Both the position numbers and the translations under genes were made by a program. From a virus, in IMG/VR virus record IMGVR_UViG_3300029893_000022, positions 1 through 41,911 of that record: a stretch of DNA of 41,911 nt. One strand, 5' to 3'. Numbering within the stretch: position 1 is the stretch's first letter; every line of letters starts with the position of its first letter. Shown piece by piece: positions 1 through 41,911 of this stretch. A model generated the notes under the pieces. That model was not told the DNA's origin. It was given only the letters and a program-made list of their open reading frames with translations, and searched no databases.

Positions 1-79
1 AGTTACGGGCTGCCCGATACAGATACTCTGGGTCGCCGATGGCGATCAGAGCCTCGATCAGCCGCGGATCGTAGCGGTC
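1..79. repeat. terminal exact direct repeat; identical to 41833..41911
   Basis: Character-by-character identity of window positions 1-79 with 41833-41911; both copies lie inside coding sequence for the tandem-repeat protein. Confidence 0.9.
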
Positions 80-598
80 ATCGGGCAGGTTGCAGGCTGC
101 CCGATACAGCCACTCTGGGTCGCCGGTGGCGATCAGAGCCTCGACCAGCCGCGGATCATAACGGCTATCAGGTAGATCGTAGGTCGCCATGAATAGCAGC
201 CGGGCTTCGCCAGTGGCGATCAGTGCCTCGACCAGGCGCGGATCGTAGCGGTCATCGGGCAGGTTGCAGGCTGCCCGATACAGCCACTCTGGGTCGCCGG
301 TGGCGATCAGAGCCTCGACCAGCCGCGGATCATAGCGGCTGTTGGGCAAGTTACGGGCTGCCCGATACAGATACTCTGGGTCGCCAGAGGCGATCAGAGC
401 CTCGACCAGCCGCGGATCATAACGGCTATCAGGTAGATCGTAGGTCGCCATGAACAGCCATTCTGGGTCGCCGCTGGCGATCAGAGCCTCGACCAGCCGC
501 GGATCGTAGTGGCTGTCGGGCAGATCGTGAGTCGCCGTGAATAGCAGCCAGGCTTCGCCGGAAGCAATTAACTTATCTATATCATCATCAGTATTCAT
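1..598 (-). CDS. tandem-repeat protein (about 27-aa repeats YDPRLVEALIAxGDPExLYRAAxNLPxxR), 3-prime end runs off window start
   Basis: Minus-strand ATG at 598-596 gives MNTDDDIDKLIASGEAW... then seven or more 27-aa repeats; open to position 1. The listed plus-strand ORF 223..453 is the antisense shadow. Paralogous to 41152..41775. Confidence 0.6.
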   Translation of the reverse strand, partial: MNTDDDIDKLIASGEAWLLFTATHDLPDSHYDPRLVEALIASGDPEWLFMATYDLPDSRYDPRLVEALIASGDPEYLYRAARNLPNSRYDPRLVEALIATGDPEWLYRAACNLPDDRYDPRLVEALIATGEARLLFMATYDLPDSRYDPRLVEALIATGDPEWLYRAACNLPDDRYDPRLIEALIAIGDPEYLYRAARN

Positions 599-687: not shown

Positions 688-715
688 TTGACCATTCCTG
701 TTTGTGTGTTAAAAT
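688..715 (+). promoter_or_regulatory. putative sigma70-like promoter for the lysis genes
   Basis: TTGACC (688-693), 16-bp spacer, TGtTAAAAT extended -10 (707-715), in the divergent intergenic region 599-731 just upstream of the ATG at 732. Confidence 0.3.
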
Positions 716-731
716 TGGGCTGGAGGTGATT

Positions 732-1028
732 ATGGATGCAGAGACTTTATCCATGCTGGCCGGGGCTGTTCTATCCCTGGCGTTTTCCTATGTGCCGGGA
801 TTATCATCCTGGTATGATCCCTTAGCCGCCGAGTACAAGCGCCTGGTGATGCTCGGCTTGTTGGTGCTTGTAGCAGGGGCGGCCTTTGCCCTGGCATGTG
901 CAGGCCTGGCGGCAGACCTGGGGCTGGCGTTGACCTGTGACCGGCAAAACGCAGTGGGGTTGGTGCGTGCGCTGGTGCTGGCAATCGCCGCCAACCAGGG
1001 CGTTTTCAAACTTACCCGCAAGCCATAG
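732..1028 (+). CDS. holin-like small membrane protein
   Basis: ATG at 732 preceded by GGAGGTGA; 98 aa with two to three hydrophobic helices; directly upstream of the endolysin gene. Confidence 0.45.
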   Translation: MDAETLSMLAGAVLSLAFSYVPGLSSWYDPLAAEYKRLVMLGLLVLVAGAAFALACAGLAADLGLALTCDRQNAVGLVRALVLAIAANQGVFKLTRKP

Positions 1029-1361
1029 ATGGATGTTGATAGCTGGGTCGCGATTATTATCGCTTTGATTGGCGCGGCAGCCGGCATTGGTGGTCTGATC
1101 CGCCAGGCTCTGCGCGATAAGCCAGACATTGCAGCACAGTATGAGCAGATGGCGGAGCGCCAGGCCATGAAAATACAACAGATGCAGGCGCGCATAGACG
1201 CGCTGACAGGTGAAATCGAAGAGCTGAAGCAGGCTCTCGAAGAGCGAGATCGGTTGATCCAGGCATGGCAGGCTGGGATCAGGATGCTAATTGACCAACT
1301 AACGGCAAATGAAATCATCCCAGTCTGGATGCCGAAAGAGAAAGCGGACAAGACAAAATGA
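1029..1361 (+). CDS. membrane-anchored coiled-coil protein (possible lysis accessory or spanin-like)
   Basis: N-terminal hydrophobic segment WVAIIIALIGAAAGIGGLI followed by a charged helical region (EIEELKQALEERDRLIQ); stop overlaps the next start (ATGA). Confidence 0.5.
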   Translation: MDVDSWVAIIIALIGAAAGIGGLIRQALRDKPDIAAQYEQMAERQAMKIQQMQARIDALTGEIEELKQALEERDRLIQAWQAGIRMLIDQLTANEIIPVWMPKEKADKTK

Positions 1362-2020
1362 TCTATCCTGTCCCGAAAGATAGCATCATCACGCAGACCT
1401 ATCAGGATCATGTAGAGCGTGCAAAACGCAATGGATGGTGCTATCGTCCCGGAAGATGTCCTGGTGGCGTGTGGTACTATGGCGGCATAGACTGGGCAGT
1501 AGTGACCGGCACGCCGGTACAGGCTGCCGAATCCGGTTTGGTTGTTACCGCCCGCCAGGATGCCACAGGCTATGGCACGCACATAAAGATCAACCACGAA
1601 GACGGACGGGAAACAATCTACGCCCATCTATCGGAGCTTCGAATCCAGGCTGGCGATAGGGTAATCGCCGGTCAAGTTATTGGGCTATCAGGAAATACAG
1701 GTAATTCAACCGGCCCTCATCTACACTTCGAATTGCGAGTAAACGGGATACCGGTTGATCCAATGCCATATTTGACAGGTGAAATCCAGGCTGGCGATAA
1801 TGATAATACCCCGGAAAAGCCGGCCTGGAAGGAAATAAAACCTGGAGACATAGTCACCATTGCCAGCCCCTATCGGATACGCGCCGCGCCGGGAACCACG
1901 GCGCGCATCCTGGCGACCATTGCCAACTCTACCCAGGCTGAGGTCATCAGCCTGGATAACACAGGCTGGGCAGAGGTCATCATCAGGGGCTGGGTTCACC
2001 CCGACGGTTTGATTAAATAA
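1358..2020 (+). CDS. peptidase M23 (LytM-type) endolysin
   Basis: Motifs HIKINHEDGRETIYAHL and NTGNSTGPHLHFELR match the HxxxD and HxH zinc-binding signature of M23 peptidases; C-terminal extra domain of about 70 aa. Confidence 0.75.
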   Translation: MIYPVPKDSIITQTYQDHVERAKRNGWCYRPGRCPGGVWYYGGIDWAVVTGTPVQAAESGLVVTARQDATGYGTHIKINHEDGRETIYAHLSELRIQAGDRVIAGQVIGLSGNTGNSTGPHLHFELRVNGIPVDPMPYLTGEIQAGDNDNTPEKPAWKEIKPGDIVTIASPYRIRAAPGTTARILATIANSTQAEVISLDNTGWAEVIIRGWVHPDGLIK

Positions 2021-2023
2021 GCG

Positions 2024-2051
2024 CCCGGTGCGACAGAGATGTCGCACCGGG
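2024..2051. terminator. stem-loop terminator between convergent genes
   Basis: CCCGGTGCGAC-agagat-GTCGCACCGGG, 11-bp perfect stem; on the minus strand it is followed by TTATTTAAT. Lies between the endolysin stop (2020) and the minus-strand small ORF stop (2066). Confidence 0.4.
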
Positions 2052-2065
2052 CTTGCTGGTCGGCA

Positions 2066-2188
2066 CTATTTCGCACTGAGGATGGCGATTAACACCGCCG
2101 CCCCCAGCACGATGGCCGCCATAAGATTGAATGGCGGCGTAACCATCAGATAGGCTGCCACAGGGGCGGCCAAAAGTAACAGTTTCAT
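2066..2188 (-). CDS. small hydrophobic peptide (40 aa)
   Basis: Not in the ORF track (under 60 aa). AAGGAGAAtgaaATG RBS; MKLLLLAAPVAAYLMVTPPFNLMAAIVLGAAVLIAILSAK, almost entirely hydrophobic; last cistron of a minus-strand operon. Confidence 0.4.
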   Translation of the reverse strand: MKLLLLAAPVAAYLMVTPPFNLMAAIVLGAAVLIAILSAK

Positions 2189-2415
2189 TTCATTCTCCTT
2201 GCCCGCTTTACCCCGCGGGCTGGGGTGATCCTACCGGCGATTCCGATTCCACCCATCGCCACTGTGCCGTCCTGGCGCGGGCGTGTGGTGGCGGTTACCA
2301 TCCCTCACGCCTTATTTGGGATGGCCCATGAGCGCCGCGGCAGCATACACTCTGCCGCACCGGGCTTTCACCGGTCGCCCACCCGTGAGGGTGGGCGGGC
2401 CTTGCGGGCGGGGGG
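2189..2415 (-). ncRNA. candidate structured intercistronic RNA element, copy 1
   Basis: GC-rich segment starting right after the stop of gene 2416..2790; about 85 nt are 85% identical to copy 2 (2791..2929). Minus-strand hairpins CGCCCACCC-ucac-GGGUGGGCG (plus 2376-2397) and GCGGCAG-aguguaug-CUGCCGC (plus 2337-2358), plus further hairpins toward the small ORF. Confidence 0.35.
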
Positions 2416-2790
2416 CTAGTCCTCAGGAGGCAACAGCCCCTCCGCTTTTGCCCTTTCACGGGTCATATAGACCTCGTGAGCAGCGAAATTAATTCGCTCT
2501 TTTTTGTCCGGTCTCCCGGACAAGCCTTCGAAGAATTTCTGAGTTGGCTTTTTGGGGAAGTAGTTATTCCCCAGACCCAACTCATTTTTTAAGTTTTTCG
2601 AAGTTATCACCCGCACCGGATACGGGACGTTTGCCAGACCCGCCTGCGAAGAACAGAACTTACAAACGTGAACATACGTCTGAGACTCATTGTCCCAGGC
2701 CTCGTTGTTTGTCTCATCTCTGCACATTGTGCAGGGGGCCCATGTCCAGCCCCCCCTGTCATCATACTTTCTCACCCATTCGGCCTTCAC
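2416..2790 (-). CDS. Cys-rich (zinc-ribbon-like) hypothetical protein
   Basis: Likely GTG start at 2790 with AGGAGA 5 nt upstream (the longer listed ORF 2416..3006 runs through copy 2 of the RNA element); 124 aa with C-x2-C ... C-x2-C (CTMC, CKFC). Confidence 0.5.
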   Translation of the reverse strand: MKAEWVRKYDDRGGWTWAPCTMCRDETNNEAWDNESQTYVHVCKFCSSQAGLANVPYPVRVITSKNLKNELGLGNNYFPKKPTQKFFEGLSGRPDKKERINFAAHEVYMTRERAKAEGLLPPED

Positions 2791-2929
2791 TTTGTTCTCC
2801 TGCCCGCCTATGACCCGACGGGCGGGGTCTAGTGATTGATTGCCCATGAGCGCCGCGGCATCTCTGCCGCACCGGACTTCCACCGGTCGCCCACTCCGAG
2901 AGCGGGCGGGCCTTGCGGACTGGGAGGGG
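2791..2929 (-). ncRNA. candidate structured intercistronic RNA element, copy 2
   Basis: Starts right after the stop of gene 2930..3148. Same three-hairpin core as copy 1; the first stem carries compensatory changes (CGCCCGCUC/GAGUGGGCG with a G-U pair, plus 2888-2908) and the second keeps the stem with a GAGA tetraloop (plus 2855-2870). Confidence 0.35.
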
Positions 2930-3148
2930 CTACACAGGCTCGAAGAGCAACTCCCGTTCCCCCTCCACTGTTCCCCAGAAGCGACCGTTTGTCGCCTCGT
3001 CAACAACGATTTTTCCGACCGTCGGGTCGTACTCGATCATCATCTCAACAATTTCCCCCAGCCTGCCTACCTCCAGATACCCCCCCCAACGGGGGGTAAG
3101 GATTCTAACCATCCGCTCGTCATTTTCATAGTCCTTAATAGTAGTCAT
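2930..3148 (-). CDS. hypothetical protein (72 aa)
   Basis: GGAGGAGAcagaaATG RBS; first cistron of the minus-strand small-gene operon. Confidence 0.5.
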   Translation of the reverse strand: MTTIKDYENDERMVRILTPRWGGYLEVGRLGEIVEMMIEYDPTVGKIVVDEATNGRFWGTVEGERELLFEPV

Positions 3149-3212
3149 TTCTGTCTCCTCCCGGCCTTTTCCCCGACCGGTGGGGGGTTAGGTTGGTTGA
3201 CTGACTGTCTAT

Positions 3213-3240
3213 AGTGTAACACGTGTAGTACGAATGTCAA
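3213..3240 (-). promoter_or_regulatory. putative promoter of the minus-strand small-gene operon
   Basis: Minus-strand TTGACA (plus 3235-3240), 16-bp spacer, TACACT (plus 3213-3218), about 60 nt upstream of the start at 3148. Confidence 0.3.
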
Positions 3241-3404
3241 GCTGGTTTATGGAACATTAATCAAACTCTAATCTTTCTCGCTGGTATAATCCAACCGTGA
3301 TTACCGATGCCTGCTACTACCTGTACCTAGCCTGGTGTCTCTCCTGGCTCTATGTCCTGGCTCTGCATGCCGGTTTATGACGCGCCGCGTCATAGACCAC
3401 TCCA

Positions 3405-3466: not shown

Positions 3467-3976
3467 ATGACCGATAACAGTAACAGCAACAGCCTGCTCG
3501 CAAACGATCCTAACGAGCTACAGCGCATCCTACAGTCTCTCAGCATGCTACAACTGCGCTGGTTGATCGCGCGAACAGAGGTTGATACCGACAAGGAAGC
3601 CTGCGAGCGGATCGGTATCGCCTATCACAGCTGCATGCGCTGGCCTAACAGGAACGACATCCATCGGGCATTGCGCCTGATGATGTACGACAAACTGGAC
3701 GCAGCGCGTGAGCTGCTCAAACGGTCTGTGGTCGAGGCAGTGGAGGAGCTGCGCCGTGAGCTGGACGATCCATCACCGCGGATACGCCAGCGTGCAGCCA
3801 TCGAGATACTGGATCGGACGATGGGGCGTGCAGTCCAGCCGTCCATCATGATAACTGCCGGTGTGGATGACCTGTTACGTCGGATATGGGGCGACGACGG
3901 CGAGCCAGCACCTGGGCCGGCTGGGGATGTGATAGATGGAGAGATGACGGATGCGCCGGTGTCTGATGATGGTTAA
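3467..3976 (+). CDS. HTH DNA-binding protein (terminase small subunit-like or transcriptional regulator)
   Basis: Start taken at ATG 3467 because the longer listed ORF from 3335 runs through the promoter and operators. HTH-like segment DKEACERIGIAYHSCMRW; later IRQRAAIEILDRTMG resembles the conserved C-terminal helix of P27-type small terminases; acidic tail. No obvious RBS. Confidence 0.5.
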   Translation: MTDNSNSNSLLANDPNELQRILQSLSMLQLRWLIARTEVDTDKEACERIGIAYHSCMRWPNRNDIHRALRLMMYDKLDAARELLKRSVVEAVEELRRELDDPSPRIRQRAAIEILDRTMGRAVQPSIMITAGVDDLLRRIWGDDGEPAPGPAGDVIDGEMTDAPVSDDG

Positions 3977-3979
3977 GAT

Positions 3980-4766
3980 AAGGTCGCTTATCGCGAGCGT
4001 AATGTTTTGAGGTTTTGTAGGTGATCGCAACGCATATTGACATACCCCCACATCTGGGGGTATGTCGCGTTATATGGGGGTTGCATCCAGTAGTTGGTGG
4101 TGTATCAGTAGATGCCGGAGTGTATCAGATGTATCAAGATGCCGGCTGATTGTATCAGTGTATCATTGGATTGTATCATTGTATCAACCCGTACATGTGG
4201 GTGGTAGTGTCTCGTACGGTGTACATACCCCCATATATAGGGGTATTGAGAAGCAATAAATTGTATCAGTGTATCATCTATCTATCATAGGTTAAGCAAC
4301 CAAGGCAACCAAGGCAACCAAGGCAACCAGAGCAACCCCTATATATAGCCATCAATGCCGTATATGGATACTACCCCCCATATATGGGGGTATAATAATT
4401 GATGATTTTTAATCTTCAATTAATGATTAAGCAACCTTTTTAAGCAACCTTAAGCAACCTGTAATGTATCTATATAATACTTGTACAATACCTAAACATT
4501 GATTATATGTATGTATAGGTTGCTTAAGTTGCCTTGGTTGCTTAAGTTGCCTTGGTTGCTCTGGTTGCTTAACCTCGTAAGCTTTAATATTTCATAACCA
4601 TACCAGTATATCAATCACTATTGCATTTTAGGGCTACTTTATGCCATTTTAGGGGTGTTTTAAGCCAAAAAATGCCCTAAATGGGCATCTCAGATTGTTT
4701 CCGGGCCGGCCAGGTCAGCCCGAAAAGGTGTCGAGGTTAAGCAACCAAGGCAACCGGTGCAACCTT
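3980..4766. repeat. iteron-rich AT-rich noncoding region (candidate replication origin or packaging/partition site)
   Basis: TGTATCA repeats (4101-4187, 4261-4277); C/G-tract palindromes (4043-4062, 4225-4246, 4372-4392); GCAACCAAG tandem repeats (4296-4337) with an inverted array (4518-4573); TAAGCAACC x3 (4428-4460); AT-rich core (about 4393-4430); GCAACC cluster at 4738-4764. Confidence 0.5.
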
Positions 4767-35059: not shown

Positions 35060-35610
35060 GTCGCTCATTGTATATGGGTTACTAATTGACATGGCTTGCA
35101 CGGAGTTTTTGGGTTACTTCCATCGCTTAGCTCGCTTCTCTGTAATGGGTTACTTTGTTAGCTTGGCTCGCTTACGCTAGATGGGTTACTCCTCTCGAAT
35201 GGCTCGCTTCGTTCCGTTGGGTTACTTGCTGTGCTTGGCTCGCTTCTGCGACATGGGTCACTCAACTCATATGGCTCACTTCCTCAGTTTGGGTTACTCA
35301 CTGAGCTTGGCTCGCTTGTATATCATGGGTTACTCCTTGAGACTGGCTCGCTTGGGTAGCATGGGTTACTCATAATCGGTGGCTCGCTTCATCACCCTGG
35401 GTTACTCGCCAGCAATGGCTCGCTTACCCACTTTGGGTTACTTGCTTCGCTTGGCTCGCTTTCTTTTGATGGGTTACTTCACCCTCTTGGCTCGCTTTCT
35501 TAGCTTGGGTTACTTGCCGAGTTTGGCTCGCTTGTATATCATGGGTTACTCACTAACACTGGCTCGCTTCCGTCTTCTGGGTTACTCCGCGGTAATGGCT
35601 CGATTGGGCT
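35060..35610. repeat. tandem array A of a 36-bp dimeric repeat (18-bp half-units TGGGTTACT+N9 and TGGCTCGCTT+N8), about 15 units
   Basis: Read directly: the two cores alternate with strict 18-bp spacing; variable segments are pyrimidine-rich on the plus strand; downstream (3-prime) of minus-strand gene 35619..36311. Confidence 0.85.
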
Positions 35611-36361: not shown

Positions 36362-37215
36362 TTGCTTCCCAATTCCGGCTCGCTCTCAACGAATGGACTG
36401 CTCTTCCTTAATGGCTCGCTCTTTTTATCTGGGTTTCTGCATCGAAATAGCTCGCTCCTCTCGTCTGGATTGATTGTTCATTGTGGCTCGCTTATGCTCC
36501 ATGGGTTACTTTTCGATCCTGGCTCGCTTTCCGTCTCTGGGTTACTTAGAGATGCTGGCTCGCTTGCGCGGGATGGGTTACTCACGTTGCCTGGCTCGCT
36601 TCATTATCCTGGGTTACTTGACCTTTGTGGCTCGCTTACTTGGTTTTGGTTACTCGTCAATTATGGCTCGCTTCTCGCATATGGGTTACTCCGTTATTCT
36701 GGCTCGCTTGCGCAGGTTGGGTTACTCACTGCGTATGGCTCGCTTACTTGCCATGGGTTACTCACCGCGTCTGGCTCGCTTGCATATCCTGGGTTACTCC
36801 TGAACTTTGGCTCGCTTCAGCATCGTGGGTTACTCTCCGCGTCTGGCTCGATTGCAGTAGTTGGGTTGCTTTTACAGTTCGGCTCGCTTCCCGCACGTGG
36901 GTTATGGGTTACTCATCTTCAGTGGCTCGCTTTCGGTTTCTGGGTTACTTTCGCCTACTGGCTCGCTTTCTGACTCTGGATTACTTGTATGCAATGGCTC
37001 GCTTACACATCGTGGGTTACTCTCCGTGTCTGGCTCGCTTGCATATCATGGGTTACTCCTAAACAATGAATGGCTCGCTTGCGCGGGATGGATTACTCAC
37101 GTTGCCTGGCTCGCTTCTCCAGCTTGGGTTACTCAAGTTGCCTGGCTCGCTTCGTCATCATGGGTTACTTTTCAAGGGTGGCTCGCTTTATTCATTCAGA
37201 ATGGCTCTTCCATTC
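36362..37215. repeat. tandem array B of the same 36-bp dimeric repeat, about 23 units
   Basis: Same cores and orientation as array A; includes segmental duplications (for example GGCTCGCTTGCGCGGGATGGgTTACTCACGTTGCCTGGCTCGCTT at about 36563 and 37071); upstream (5-prime) of gene 35619..36311. Confidence 0.85.
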
Positions 37216-41183: not shown

Positions 41184-41775
41184 TCTCTGCCTCTTCCTGC
41201 ATTGCTTTCGCCACTAATAAGCGCAAGTACTGGGACACATTCCCTGGAGACTTGCGTCGCAGAAACTCAATCTGTTCAGTAGTCATCCTTACATTGACTA
41301 TCTGCATCGGTTTATTTTCCATCGTTCCTACCTTATCCAGCCCCACAAATACAGTTTCAGAGAGGAATGATGATGAATGCTGAACATTCTCAATAATAGA
41401 AAGTGTCTCGACCAGCCGCGGATCGCGGCGGCTGTTGGGCAAGTTACGGGCTGCCCGATACAGATACTCTGGGTCGCCGATGGCGATCAGAGCCTCGATC
41501 AGCCGCGGATCGTAGCGGCTGTCGGGTAATTCAATGGCTGCTCGATATAGCCAGATAGCTTTACCAATGGCGATCAACGCCTCTAATAGTCGCTGATCGT
41601 ATCGGTCGTCGGGGAGGTCAACGATAGCCTGGTATATCCAGGTAGCATTACCAGTGCCGATTAGCGCATCCAGTATACGCGGGTCGTATTGGCCATATGG
41701 CAACTCGCGAGCTGCCCAGTATAGCTCCTCGGCGACGCCAGATGCAATTAAGCTATCAATATCAAGGGTGTCCAT
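41152..41775 (-). CDS. tandem-repeat protein (27-aa repeats) with in-frame C-terminal RHH-like segment
   Basis: AGGAGAGG RBS before ATG 41775; five repeats of the YDPRLxEALIAIGxxxxLYRAAxxLPxxRYD type; the last 56 codons (from the internal ATG at 41322, preceded by AGGTAGGA) read MENKPMQIVNVRMTTEQIEFLRRKSPGNVSQYLRLLVAKAM, RHH-like. Confidence 0.6.
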   Translation of the reverse strand: MDTLDIDSLIASGVAEELYWAARELPYGQYDPRILDALIGTGNATWIYQAIVDLPDDRYDQRLLEALIAIGKAIWLYRAAIELPDSRYDPRLIEALIAIGDPEYLYRAARNLPNSRRDPRLVETLSIIENVQHSSSFLSETVFVGLDKVGTMENKPMQIVNVRMTTEQIEFLRRKSPGNVSQYLRLLVAKAMQEEAENERLGNLRSS

Positions 41776-41911
41776 GTTCCTCTCCTTTCATTAGTGCCTT
41801 GACCAGCCGCGGATCATAGCGGCTGTTGGGCAAGTTACGGGCTGCCCGATACAGATACTCTGGGTCGCCGATGGCGATCAGAGCCTCGATCAGCCGCGGA
41901 TCGTAGCGGTC
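41762..41911 (-). CDS. C-terminal end of a tandem-repeat protein, 5-prime part beyond the window end
   Basis: Minus-strand frame open from 41911, reading DRYDPRLIEALIAIGDPEYLYRAARNLPNSRYDPRLVKALMKGEEHGHP then TGA at 41764-41762; same frame (mod 3) as the partial gene at 1..598. Confidence 0.5.
   Translation of the reverse strand, partial: DRYDPRLIEALIAIGDPEYLYRAARNLPNSRYDPRLVKALMKGEEHGHP

Follow-up and report, generated by a model that had tools for sequence, protein, structure and literature searches.

Two predicted twister-sister ribozymes between the small genes of a phage operon

Two repeated elements in a three-gene operon

The window analysed here comprises positions 1 to 41,911 of IMG/VR record IMGVR_UViG_3300029893_000022 and corresponds to NCBI contig DYGH01000004.1 (GCA_020724785.1; 41,876 bp). 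Its minus strand carries at 3148..2066 three short open reading frames (ORFs), each with a good Shine-Dalgarno sequence, and both intercistronic gaps open right after a TAG stop codon with a shared element. The two elements are very likely twister-sister ribozymes that cut a tricistronic RNA into three monocistronic RNAs; the class is assigned by sequence and structure, and catalysis and its consequences are predicted from that assignment. In transcript order, the genes and elements are as follows (all on the minus strand; aa, amino acids).

2930..3148, minus strand: ORF1, 72 aa, TAG stop at 2932..2930; a 72-aa gene in the public record
2837..2923, minus strand: predicted twister-sister ribozyme 1; P1 2920..2917/2845..2842; P2 2911..2909/2854..2852; P3 2908..2900/2896..2888; L1 5' strand GCAAG 2916..2912; L1 3' strand GCUCAU 2851..2846; P4/SL4 2887..2871 with loop GUGGAAGUC; P5 2870..2865/2860..2855
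2416..2790, minus strand: ORF2, 124 aa, start GTG 2790, CxxC...CxxC motifs, TAG stop at 2418..2416
2319..2412, minus strand: predicted twister-sister ribozyme 2; P1 2409..2406/2327..2324; SL4 loop GUGAAAGCC; P5 of 7 bp with an 8-nt loop
2066..2188, minus strand: ORF3, 40 aa, an almost entirely hydrophobic peptide; called at this length in three public assemblies

A preliminary description of this DNA had reported that about 85 nt at about 85% identity are shared after each TAG. Local alignment of the copies from the TAG to the end of the element bears this out, with 85 of 103 columns identical (82.5%, or 93% of the ungapped columns). The copies are set 512 nt apart and are the only two in the window, and the positions at which they differ fall in the stem of hairpin 1 and the loop of hairpin 3. 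The distance from the TAG to the outermost helix, P1, is 9 nt behind ORF1 and 6 nt behind ORF2.

Minus-strand folding gave -47.4 kcal/mol for one element (copy A) and -55.3 kcal/mol for the other (copy B), with z-scores of -2.8 and -3.5, and recovered the three adjacent hairpins that had been described before. The paired substitutions reported for the first stem are also real. This stem is P3, which reads CGCCCGCUC/GAGUGGGCG versus CGCCCACCC/GGGUGGGCG in the two copies and contains one truly compensatory change (U-A to C-G) and one change from G.U to A-U. An unchanged stem with loops of 8 nt and GAGA does occur as described; it is the third hairpin (P5) and not the second (P4), whose 9-nt loop is conserved in sequence. 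The earlier picture of three hairpins had missed the outer helices and the catalytic internal loop: the hairpins are enclosed by P1 (4 bp) and P2 (3 bp), with a conserved internal loop between the two, to form a four-way junction. This P1-P5 architecture is reproduced by the minimum-free-energy (MFE) folds of both copies.

The claim that the structure is strand-specific holds in part. The G.U pair of P3 turns into a C.A mismatch on the plus strand, and copy A folds more weakly there (-40.1 versus -47.4 kcal/mol on the minus strand), but for copy B the plus-strand fold is the slightly more stable one (-58.8 versus -55.3 kcal/mol). Covariance-model scores separate the strands for both copies: minus-strand matches reach 60-75 bits, whereas the plus strand yields none at E<=1, and it is these scores, not folding energy, that assign the elements to the minus strand.

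Assignment to the twister-sister class

A scan of the whole window against Rfam 15 returned exactly two matches above the gathering score, both to RF02681 (Twister-sister), both on the minus strand and both covering model positions 1-81 of 81. The match at 2923..2837 scores 63.0 bits (E 4e-12) and that at 2412..2319 scores 60.6 bits (E 2e-11), against a gathering score of 34. Since these E-values apply to the whole 41.9-kb window, the similarity is far above chance. A covariance model built for this study scores ribozyme 1 at 75.2 bits and ribozyme 2 at 70.5 bits, and a permissive Rfam scan of 1900..3400 gave nothing further credible. The preliminary description had proposed a selected RNA structure and had listed a processing site and a self-cleaving ribozyme among the options; the Rfam/Infernal search identifies a full-length twister-sister ribozyme in both copies. 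Two other options on that list, a translational regulator and a protein-binding element, are not needed, and regulated cleavage would still be possible.

The highly conserved residues of the 2-Å four-way structure are G5 C6 A7 A8 G9, G59 C60 U61 C62 A63 U64 and, in SL4, G29 U30 G31 N A33 A34 G35 N C37, and SL4 docks on L1 through two contacts, T1 and T2 (PMC5660989). Every one of these residues is present in both copies. The conserved L1 nucleotides GCAAG and GCGCUCAU match exactly, and the SL4 loops GUGGAAGUC and GUGAAAGCC fit G-U-G-N-A-A-G-N-C (GUGNAAGNC), the two N positions being the only ones that vary. Cleavage is predicted at C2848/A2847 in ribozyme 1 and at C2330/A2329 in ribozyme 2, the steps homologous to C62-A63 (PMC5660989). 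Only two deviations from the Rfam consensus are seen: the junctional A.C pair is replaced by G-C, and P3 is long (9 bp). The twister-sister family has reportedly been catalogued since Weinberg et al. 2015, and the present pair is an unremarkable addition to it, arranged in the typical way.

Relatives, covariation and genomic context

Searching with a degenerate pattern of the conserved core gave 70 loci in IMG/VR and 11 in bacterial genomes, the latter all from gut Clostridia such as Gemmiger, Oribacterium, Acutalibacter and Oscillospiraceae. The covariance model, built from 25 sequences that include both window copies, produced 128 matches of >=67 bits in 82 sources (IMG/VR phage contigs and gut Clostridia genomes), and reverse-strand scores with the same model were <=27.5 bits. 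Covariation in homologues, which the preliminary description had proposed as a check, is evident when 82 distinct sequences are aligned; this alignment was fitted to the covariance model, and the structure is independently known from crystallography. In this alignment 91.4% of cells pair in the standard fashion, compared with 28-47% when the partners are slid, and double changes occur in 17 of the 25 base pairs. The covariation score is 0.276 versus 0.082 in shuffles, a value reached by 0 of 500 shuffles.

The genomic context of the class is similarly regular. Of 113 non-redundant contexts, 109 (96%) have an ORF of >=50 codons whose end lies -1 to +12 nt ahead of P1, compared with 9.6% of random positions, and the two window values fall within this range. 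The stop codon is TAG in 5 of the 113 contexts. The next start codon follows the predicted cut at a median distance of 55 nt and never at less than 29 nt, the distances being 57 nt for ribozyme 1 and 141 nt for ribozyme 2. Upstream ORFs across the class form 29 clusters, at least 24 of them unrelated, which argues that stop-codon adjacency is not inherited with one gene. While 56 of the 82 locus-strands have a single copy, the other 26 carry 2-5 copies spaced 315-880 nt apart; one contig (L042, 8308..10909) has five consecutive genes with a ribozyme after each. The downstream gene in gut phages is often a primase (phrog_19458). The arrangement in the window, with two copies and a stop codon followed by P1, is the normal habit of the twister-sister class, and the stop-codon rule is quantified here across the class without a claim of novelty. 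The phage of the window has no relationship to the gut phages of Oscillospiraceae in which most of the relatives found here occur.

Operon signals and gene products

Besides the genes and the two elements, the following signals were found on the minus strand of the operon (UTR, untranslated region).

3213..3240, minus strand: sigma-70-type promoter-like site; TTGACA, 16-nt spacer, TG-TACACT; 10/12 in a consensus scan, with an extended -10 TG
3161..3180, minus strand: 5'-UTR hairpin 1; CCGGUC-GGGGAAAA-GGCCGG, with CCCCCC before it and the GGAGGAG Shine-Dalgarno sequence of ORF1 directly after it
2802..2823, minus strand: 5'-UTR hairpin 2; GCCCGUC-GGGUCAUA-GGCGGGC, with CCCC before it and the AGGAG Shine-Dalgarno sequence of ORF2 after it
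2201..2220, minus strand: 5'-UTR hairpin 3; GCCCGC-GGGGUAAA-GCGGGC, with CCCCA before it and the AAGGAG Shine-Dalgarno sequence of ORF3 after it
2023..2052, minus strand: terminator-like GC hairpin of 13 bp, followed by GCUUAUUUAA; found by a terminator scan; fold -30.5 kcal/mol, z -4.5

By these consensus scans, the promoter-like site (3240..3213) is placed upstream of ORF1 and the terminator-like site (2052..2023) after ORF3. A second, weaker promoter-like match (9/12) lies inside ORF1 at 3129..3102.

A common 5'-UTR motif precedes all three cistrons: a CCCC run is followed by a GC hairpin of 6-7 bp with an 8-nt loop starting GGG(G/U), and the hairpin ends 0-2 nt before the AGGAG Shine-Dalgarno sequence. 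Just three occurrences are present in the 42-kb window, all of them before the cistrons of this operon, and the CCCC run could form an H-type pseudoknot with the loop GGGG. The coding RNA of ORF2 (2790..2416, minus strand) is unusually structured, with a z-score of -4.7 versus -1.5, -2.3 and -3.2 in three other stretches of the window, and holds many local GC hairpins.

None of the three ORFs matched any Pfam or PHROG family. In the public record ORF2 is called as 155 aa, starting at a GTG within the SL4 loop of ribozyme 1. This call is probably too long, since the shorter N-terminus at GTG 2790 is supported by the homologue P0002, described below. ORF3 is preceded by a 141-nt structured leader that would start at the predicted cleavage site of ribozyme 2. 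Its product could be a small membrane peptide or resemble a toxin, with expression dependent on 5' processing, and the gene converges on the end of a lysis cassette on the plus strand (702..2020), which consists of a holin-like ORF, a spanin-like ORF and an M23/SH3 endolysin.

The window as a whole is a phage genome with genes for a large terminase, the M23/SH3 endolysin, the spanin-like protein and a primase. The large terminase has <=35% identity to that of any catalogued phage. Among 50,697 phage records, no megablast match was found for 1900..3400 and no blastn match for ribozyme 1.

Possible decayed copies and the ORF2 homologue

Possible traces of a further copy lie behind ORF3. In the region 2071..2009 (minus strand), the terminator hairpin matches the SL4/P5 part of ribozyme 2 at 14 of 15 nt (AAGCCCGGUGCGaCA; p about 0.002) and is flanked by GCAAG and GCUUAU, which resemble the two L1 strands; the Rfam twister-sister model scores just 17.2 bits here (E 1.9). 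The terminator hairpin of ORF3 may be a third ribozyme copy that lacks P3 and P4 and has turned into a terminator.

The sole homologue of ORF2 in the protein database is P0002, a protein of 128 aa with 50% identity over 97% coverage, found on contigs such as L085; no relatives of ORF2 were found in IMG/VR. The gene upstream of the homologue in L085 is unrelated to ORF1. The syntenic gap upstream of the homologue holds a weak twister-sister-like element (3838..3917, plus strand) that scores 16.8 bits with the model built here and, for its P3-P4 part, 16.8 bits with Rfam, below the threshold. P3 is kept and P4/SL4 is perfect (GCUGGUGCAAGUCCAGC), the L1 3' strand is degenerate (GCACAU), and P5 is absent. 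This may be a ribozyme in decay or else a minimal variant not described before, and the L085 locus looks like ribozyme decay in a relative. A hairpin similar to those in the 5' UTRs of the operon (3965..3984) lies ahead of the homologue, and an ordinary terminator lies downstream of it.

Predicted processing of the tricistronic RNA

The operon would be transcribed as a tricistronic RNA of ~1.2 kb, running from the sigma-70-like promoter to the terminator hairpin predicted by the consensus scans. Each ribozyme would fold while emerging, with SL4 docking onto L1. In the presence of Mg2+, and by analogy with members of the class that have been crystallised and biochemically tested, the 2'-OH of C2848 (or C2330) would attack the adjacent phosphate, and the RNA would be cut before A2847 (or A2329). 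Three monocistronic RNAs of ~360 nt (ORF1), 518 nt (ORF2) and ~310 nt (ORF3) would result. The ORF1 RNA would have ribozyme 1, with a 2',3'-cyclic phosphate, as its 3' end. The 518-nt ORF2 RNA (2847..2330) would have a 5'-OH, its own hairpin and Shine-Dalgarno sequence, and ribozyme 2 as its 3' end, and the ORF3 RNA would have a 5'-OH, the 141-nt structured leader and the terminator.

Because the cut lies near the 3' end of the ribozyme and leaves the ribozyme on the upstream message, the fates of the upstream and downstream products could differ. Nearly the whole ribozyme would remain on the upstream message as a compact 3' cap, and the downstream message would begin with 5'-OH-AUGGGC and a leader of 57-141 nt, which would make separate stabilities and translation rates possible for the three small genes. 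Processing of polycistronic transcripts is the proposed role of bacterial and phage ribozymes, a published hypothesis (PMC6765202).

Alternative explanations

Several points weigh against this account of two ribozymes that process the operon RNA. The junction reads GGCC-CG... instead of the common gut-phage GGCC-GAC..., and the 9-bp P3 is unusually long; this atypical junction and long P3 are common to few relatives only (L018, L019 and L045). Self-cleavage of both sequences is predicted from homology, and the promoter and terminator of the operon are putative, being consensus matches only. Moreover, the ribozymes would appear dispensable for ORF2, because L085 has just a degenerate element upstream of the homologue and an ordinary terminator. 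That the elements are not ribozymes at all, and represent a REP-like repeat, a terminator, a protein-binding site or part of a gene on the plus strand, is nevertheless extremely improbable. Intergenic GC-rich hairpins are common, and plus-strand ORFs of 64-124 aa span both elements. However, these ORFs have neither a Pfam match nor a public gene call, the model scores the plus strand too low to be reported, and a U-tract follows neither element. The full-length Rfam matches (E about 1e-11), together with the model built here and the covariation, effectively refute this reading. Alternatively, the elements could be catalytically inactive relics kept as exonuclease-blocking 3' structures, or DNA 'bookends' for the recombinational swap of small-gene cassettes, which would fit units of hairpin, Shine-Dalgarno sequence, ORF, stop codon and ribozyme that share flanks and carry unrelated ORFs, the 29 clusters of upstream ORFs across the class, the probable decayed copy that serves as a terminator after ORF3 and the decayed copy at the syntenic site of L085. 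This is considered quite improbable, as neither copy has lost a nucleotide of the catalytic core or the tertiary contacts, and compensatory changes preserve the helices. Selection for just a generic hairpin or for DNA identity would not be expected to leave such a pattern, and the decayed copies show what loss of constraint looks like. A role in recombination could coexist with catalysis.

Other alternatives accept cleavage and differ in what it serves. The footprint of a terminating ribosome extends past the stop codon, and here it would lie over P1, L1 and P2. A ribosome terminating on ORF1 or ORF2 could therefore cover and unwind these parts and tie cleavage to upstream translation, and it would also aid release of the 3' product. 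Such gating, rather unlikely on present evidence, would refine and not replace the processing of the operon RNA by two ribozymes. It draws on the strongly asymmetric placement of the class, in which the stop codon abuts or overlaps P1 in 96% of the 113 contexts and the start codon is never less than 29 nt from the cut, and on upstream ORFs that belong to at least 24 unrelated clusters. The tight spacing could equally reflect avoidance of an unprotected single-stranded 3' UTR, or genome compaction, and a link between translation and twister-sister activity is itself hypothetical. It is very improbable that the double cut serves to make a circular RNA. The 518-nt ORF2 RNA would carry a 5'-OH and a 2',3'-cyclic phosphate, the substrate of an RtcB-type ligase, and its 5' AUGGGC could base-pair with GCCC, the P1 strand set free in ribozyme 2; joining of the ends would then give an exonuclease-resistant circular mRNA, much as in the retrozymes of eukaryotes and in circles engineered with flanking twister ribozymes. 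Ends of this chemistry are what the ribozyme mechanism produces (PMC8782182), the P1 3' strand GGGC is the same in both ribozymes, and the excised RNA is very structured (z -7.2), with its two ends paired to each other in the MFE fold. Arrays of near-identical ribozymes are common in the class, and tandem ribozyme pairs yield circles in other systems (bioRxiv 10.1101/2024.05.16.594327). However, 518 is not a multiple of 3, and circle formation cannot be a general role of the class because most twister-sister loci (56 of 82 locus-strands) are single-copy. A combination of the two ideas, held to be unlikely, would make the ribozymes termination-coupled 'punctuation marks': the ribosome would gate folding and release, each small gene would be cut out only after it is translated, or only when it is not, and the tandem excised cassette could circularise.

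Some further candidates were tried and rejected. Plus-strand coding of the region was set aside, as Pfam gave no match and public records call the contig's genes on the minus strand. A tRNA-like cloverleaf was rejected with ARAGORN, which reported no tRNA or tmRNA in the window. An intrinsic terminator or REP repeat was rejected in view of the absence of a terminator-like site at either element and of the copy number of two in the window. The 3' product starts with AUG (A63-U64-G), in frame with ORF2 in copy 1, and a leaderless mRNA was therefore considered; this is taken as coincidence. The ORF opened by this AUG has only 5 codons in copy 2, and most such ORFs have <72 codons in the 82 pattern matches across loci and window. 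A leaderless start of ORF2 was also rejected on the support of the P0002 homologue for GTG 2790. A third intact ribozyme after ORF3 was rejected on its score of 17.2 bits (E 1.9) and the lack of P3/P4, and this site is a possible relic only.

Comparison with other self-cleaving RNAs

The elements share with the four-way type of twister-sister (RF02681; Zheng et al. 2017, PMC5660989) the helices P1-L1-P2, P3, P4 and P5, the L1 strands GCAAG/GCUCAU, the SL4 sequence GUGNAAGNC and a C-A step near the 3' end. They also share its setting, the small-gene regions of phages, often with several copies. They differ from it in the junction, where the consensus A14.C23 pair is a Watson-Crick G-C pair, and in P3, where the 3-5 bp are extended to 9 bp; G/U and A/C occupy the SL4 'N' positions.

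The twister ribozyme, said to go back to Roth et al. 2014, and the hammerhead ribozymes that bacteria and phages carry in 3' UTRs or between cistrons are likewise small self-cleaving RNAs near phage genes. For both, the proposed role is to cut polycistronic transcripts into pieces whose stability is thereby changed (PMC6765202). Twister, however, has another fold and active site, with two pseudoknots, and is cut in the opposite loop strand, which is the 5' one between P1 and P2 (PMC6154101). The loop sequences in the window match twister-sister and not twister, and no Rfam match to twister, hammerhead, pistol or hatchet was found in the window, with no twister match even at E<=10 in 1900..3400.

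The glmS ribozyme is the only bacterial self-cleaving ribozyme with an established role: it cleaves within an mRNA, and the 5'-OH end left on the downstream message alters that message's fate (PMC6765202). It is metabolite-dependent and lies in the 5' UTR of one gene family, whereas the elements described here have no ligand pocket, lie 3' of diverse ORFs and gave no Rfam match to glmS. In eukaryotic RNA viruses a ribozyme in an intergenic UTR likewise makes the 5' end of the downstream cistron, and close pairs can release unit-length RNA. Those ribozymes are mostly of the hammerhead, twister or deltavirus type and cut a few nucleotides before the start codon, in contrast to the present DNA phage, in which Shine-Dalgarno-dependent initiation would take place 57-141 nt after the predicted cut.

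Other repeats in the window

Three further groups of repeats were noted in the window. Tandem 87-nt repeats (about 6 copies, 78% matches) stand at its start (8..523) and recur at its end (41355..41909); such 29-codon repeats at both ends suggest a circularly permuted genome with one long array across the junction. Two large arrays with a 36-nt period, of roughly 14 and 20 units, lie at 35110..35602 and 36484..37188. In them the conserved 9-mers TGGGTTACT and TGGCTCGCT alternate every 18 nt, separated by variable 9-nt spacers, and the arrays could be coding (hexapeptide repeats) or protein-binding and iteron-like. A 9-nt tandem repeat (GCAACCAAG, 4.7 copies) at 4296..4337 has an inverted counterpart (GGTTGCTTAAGTTGCCTT) at 4518..4560. 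These repeats flank an AT-richer stretch of ~180 nt beside the primase and nuclease genes, an arrangement that resembles a replication origin.

Significance

The role of twister-sister, as of most self-cleaving ribozymes of bacteria and phages, is still unresolved (PMC6765202). The locus is a compact natural test case, as it combines within 1.2 kb one host-type promoter-like site, three small cistrons, two intact ribozymes and one probable decayed copy that acts as a terminator, and it has a relative, L085, with a degenerate copy. The analysis also corrects the public gene call, in which the 155-aa ORF2 begins inside a ribozyme loop. The rule that the stop codon abuts P1, together with start codons at least 29 nt after the cut, yields testable predictions on how translation termination, cleavage and mRNA fate may be coupled.

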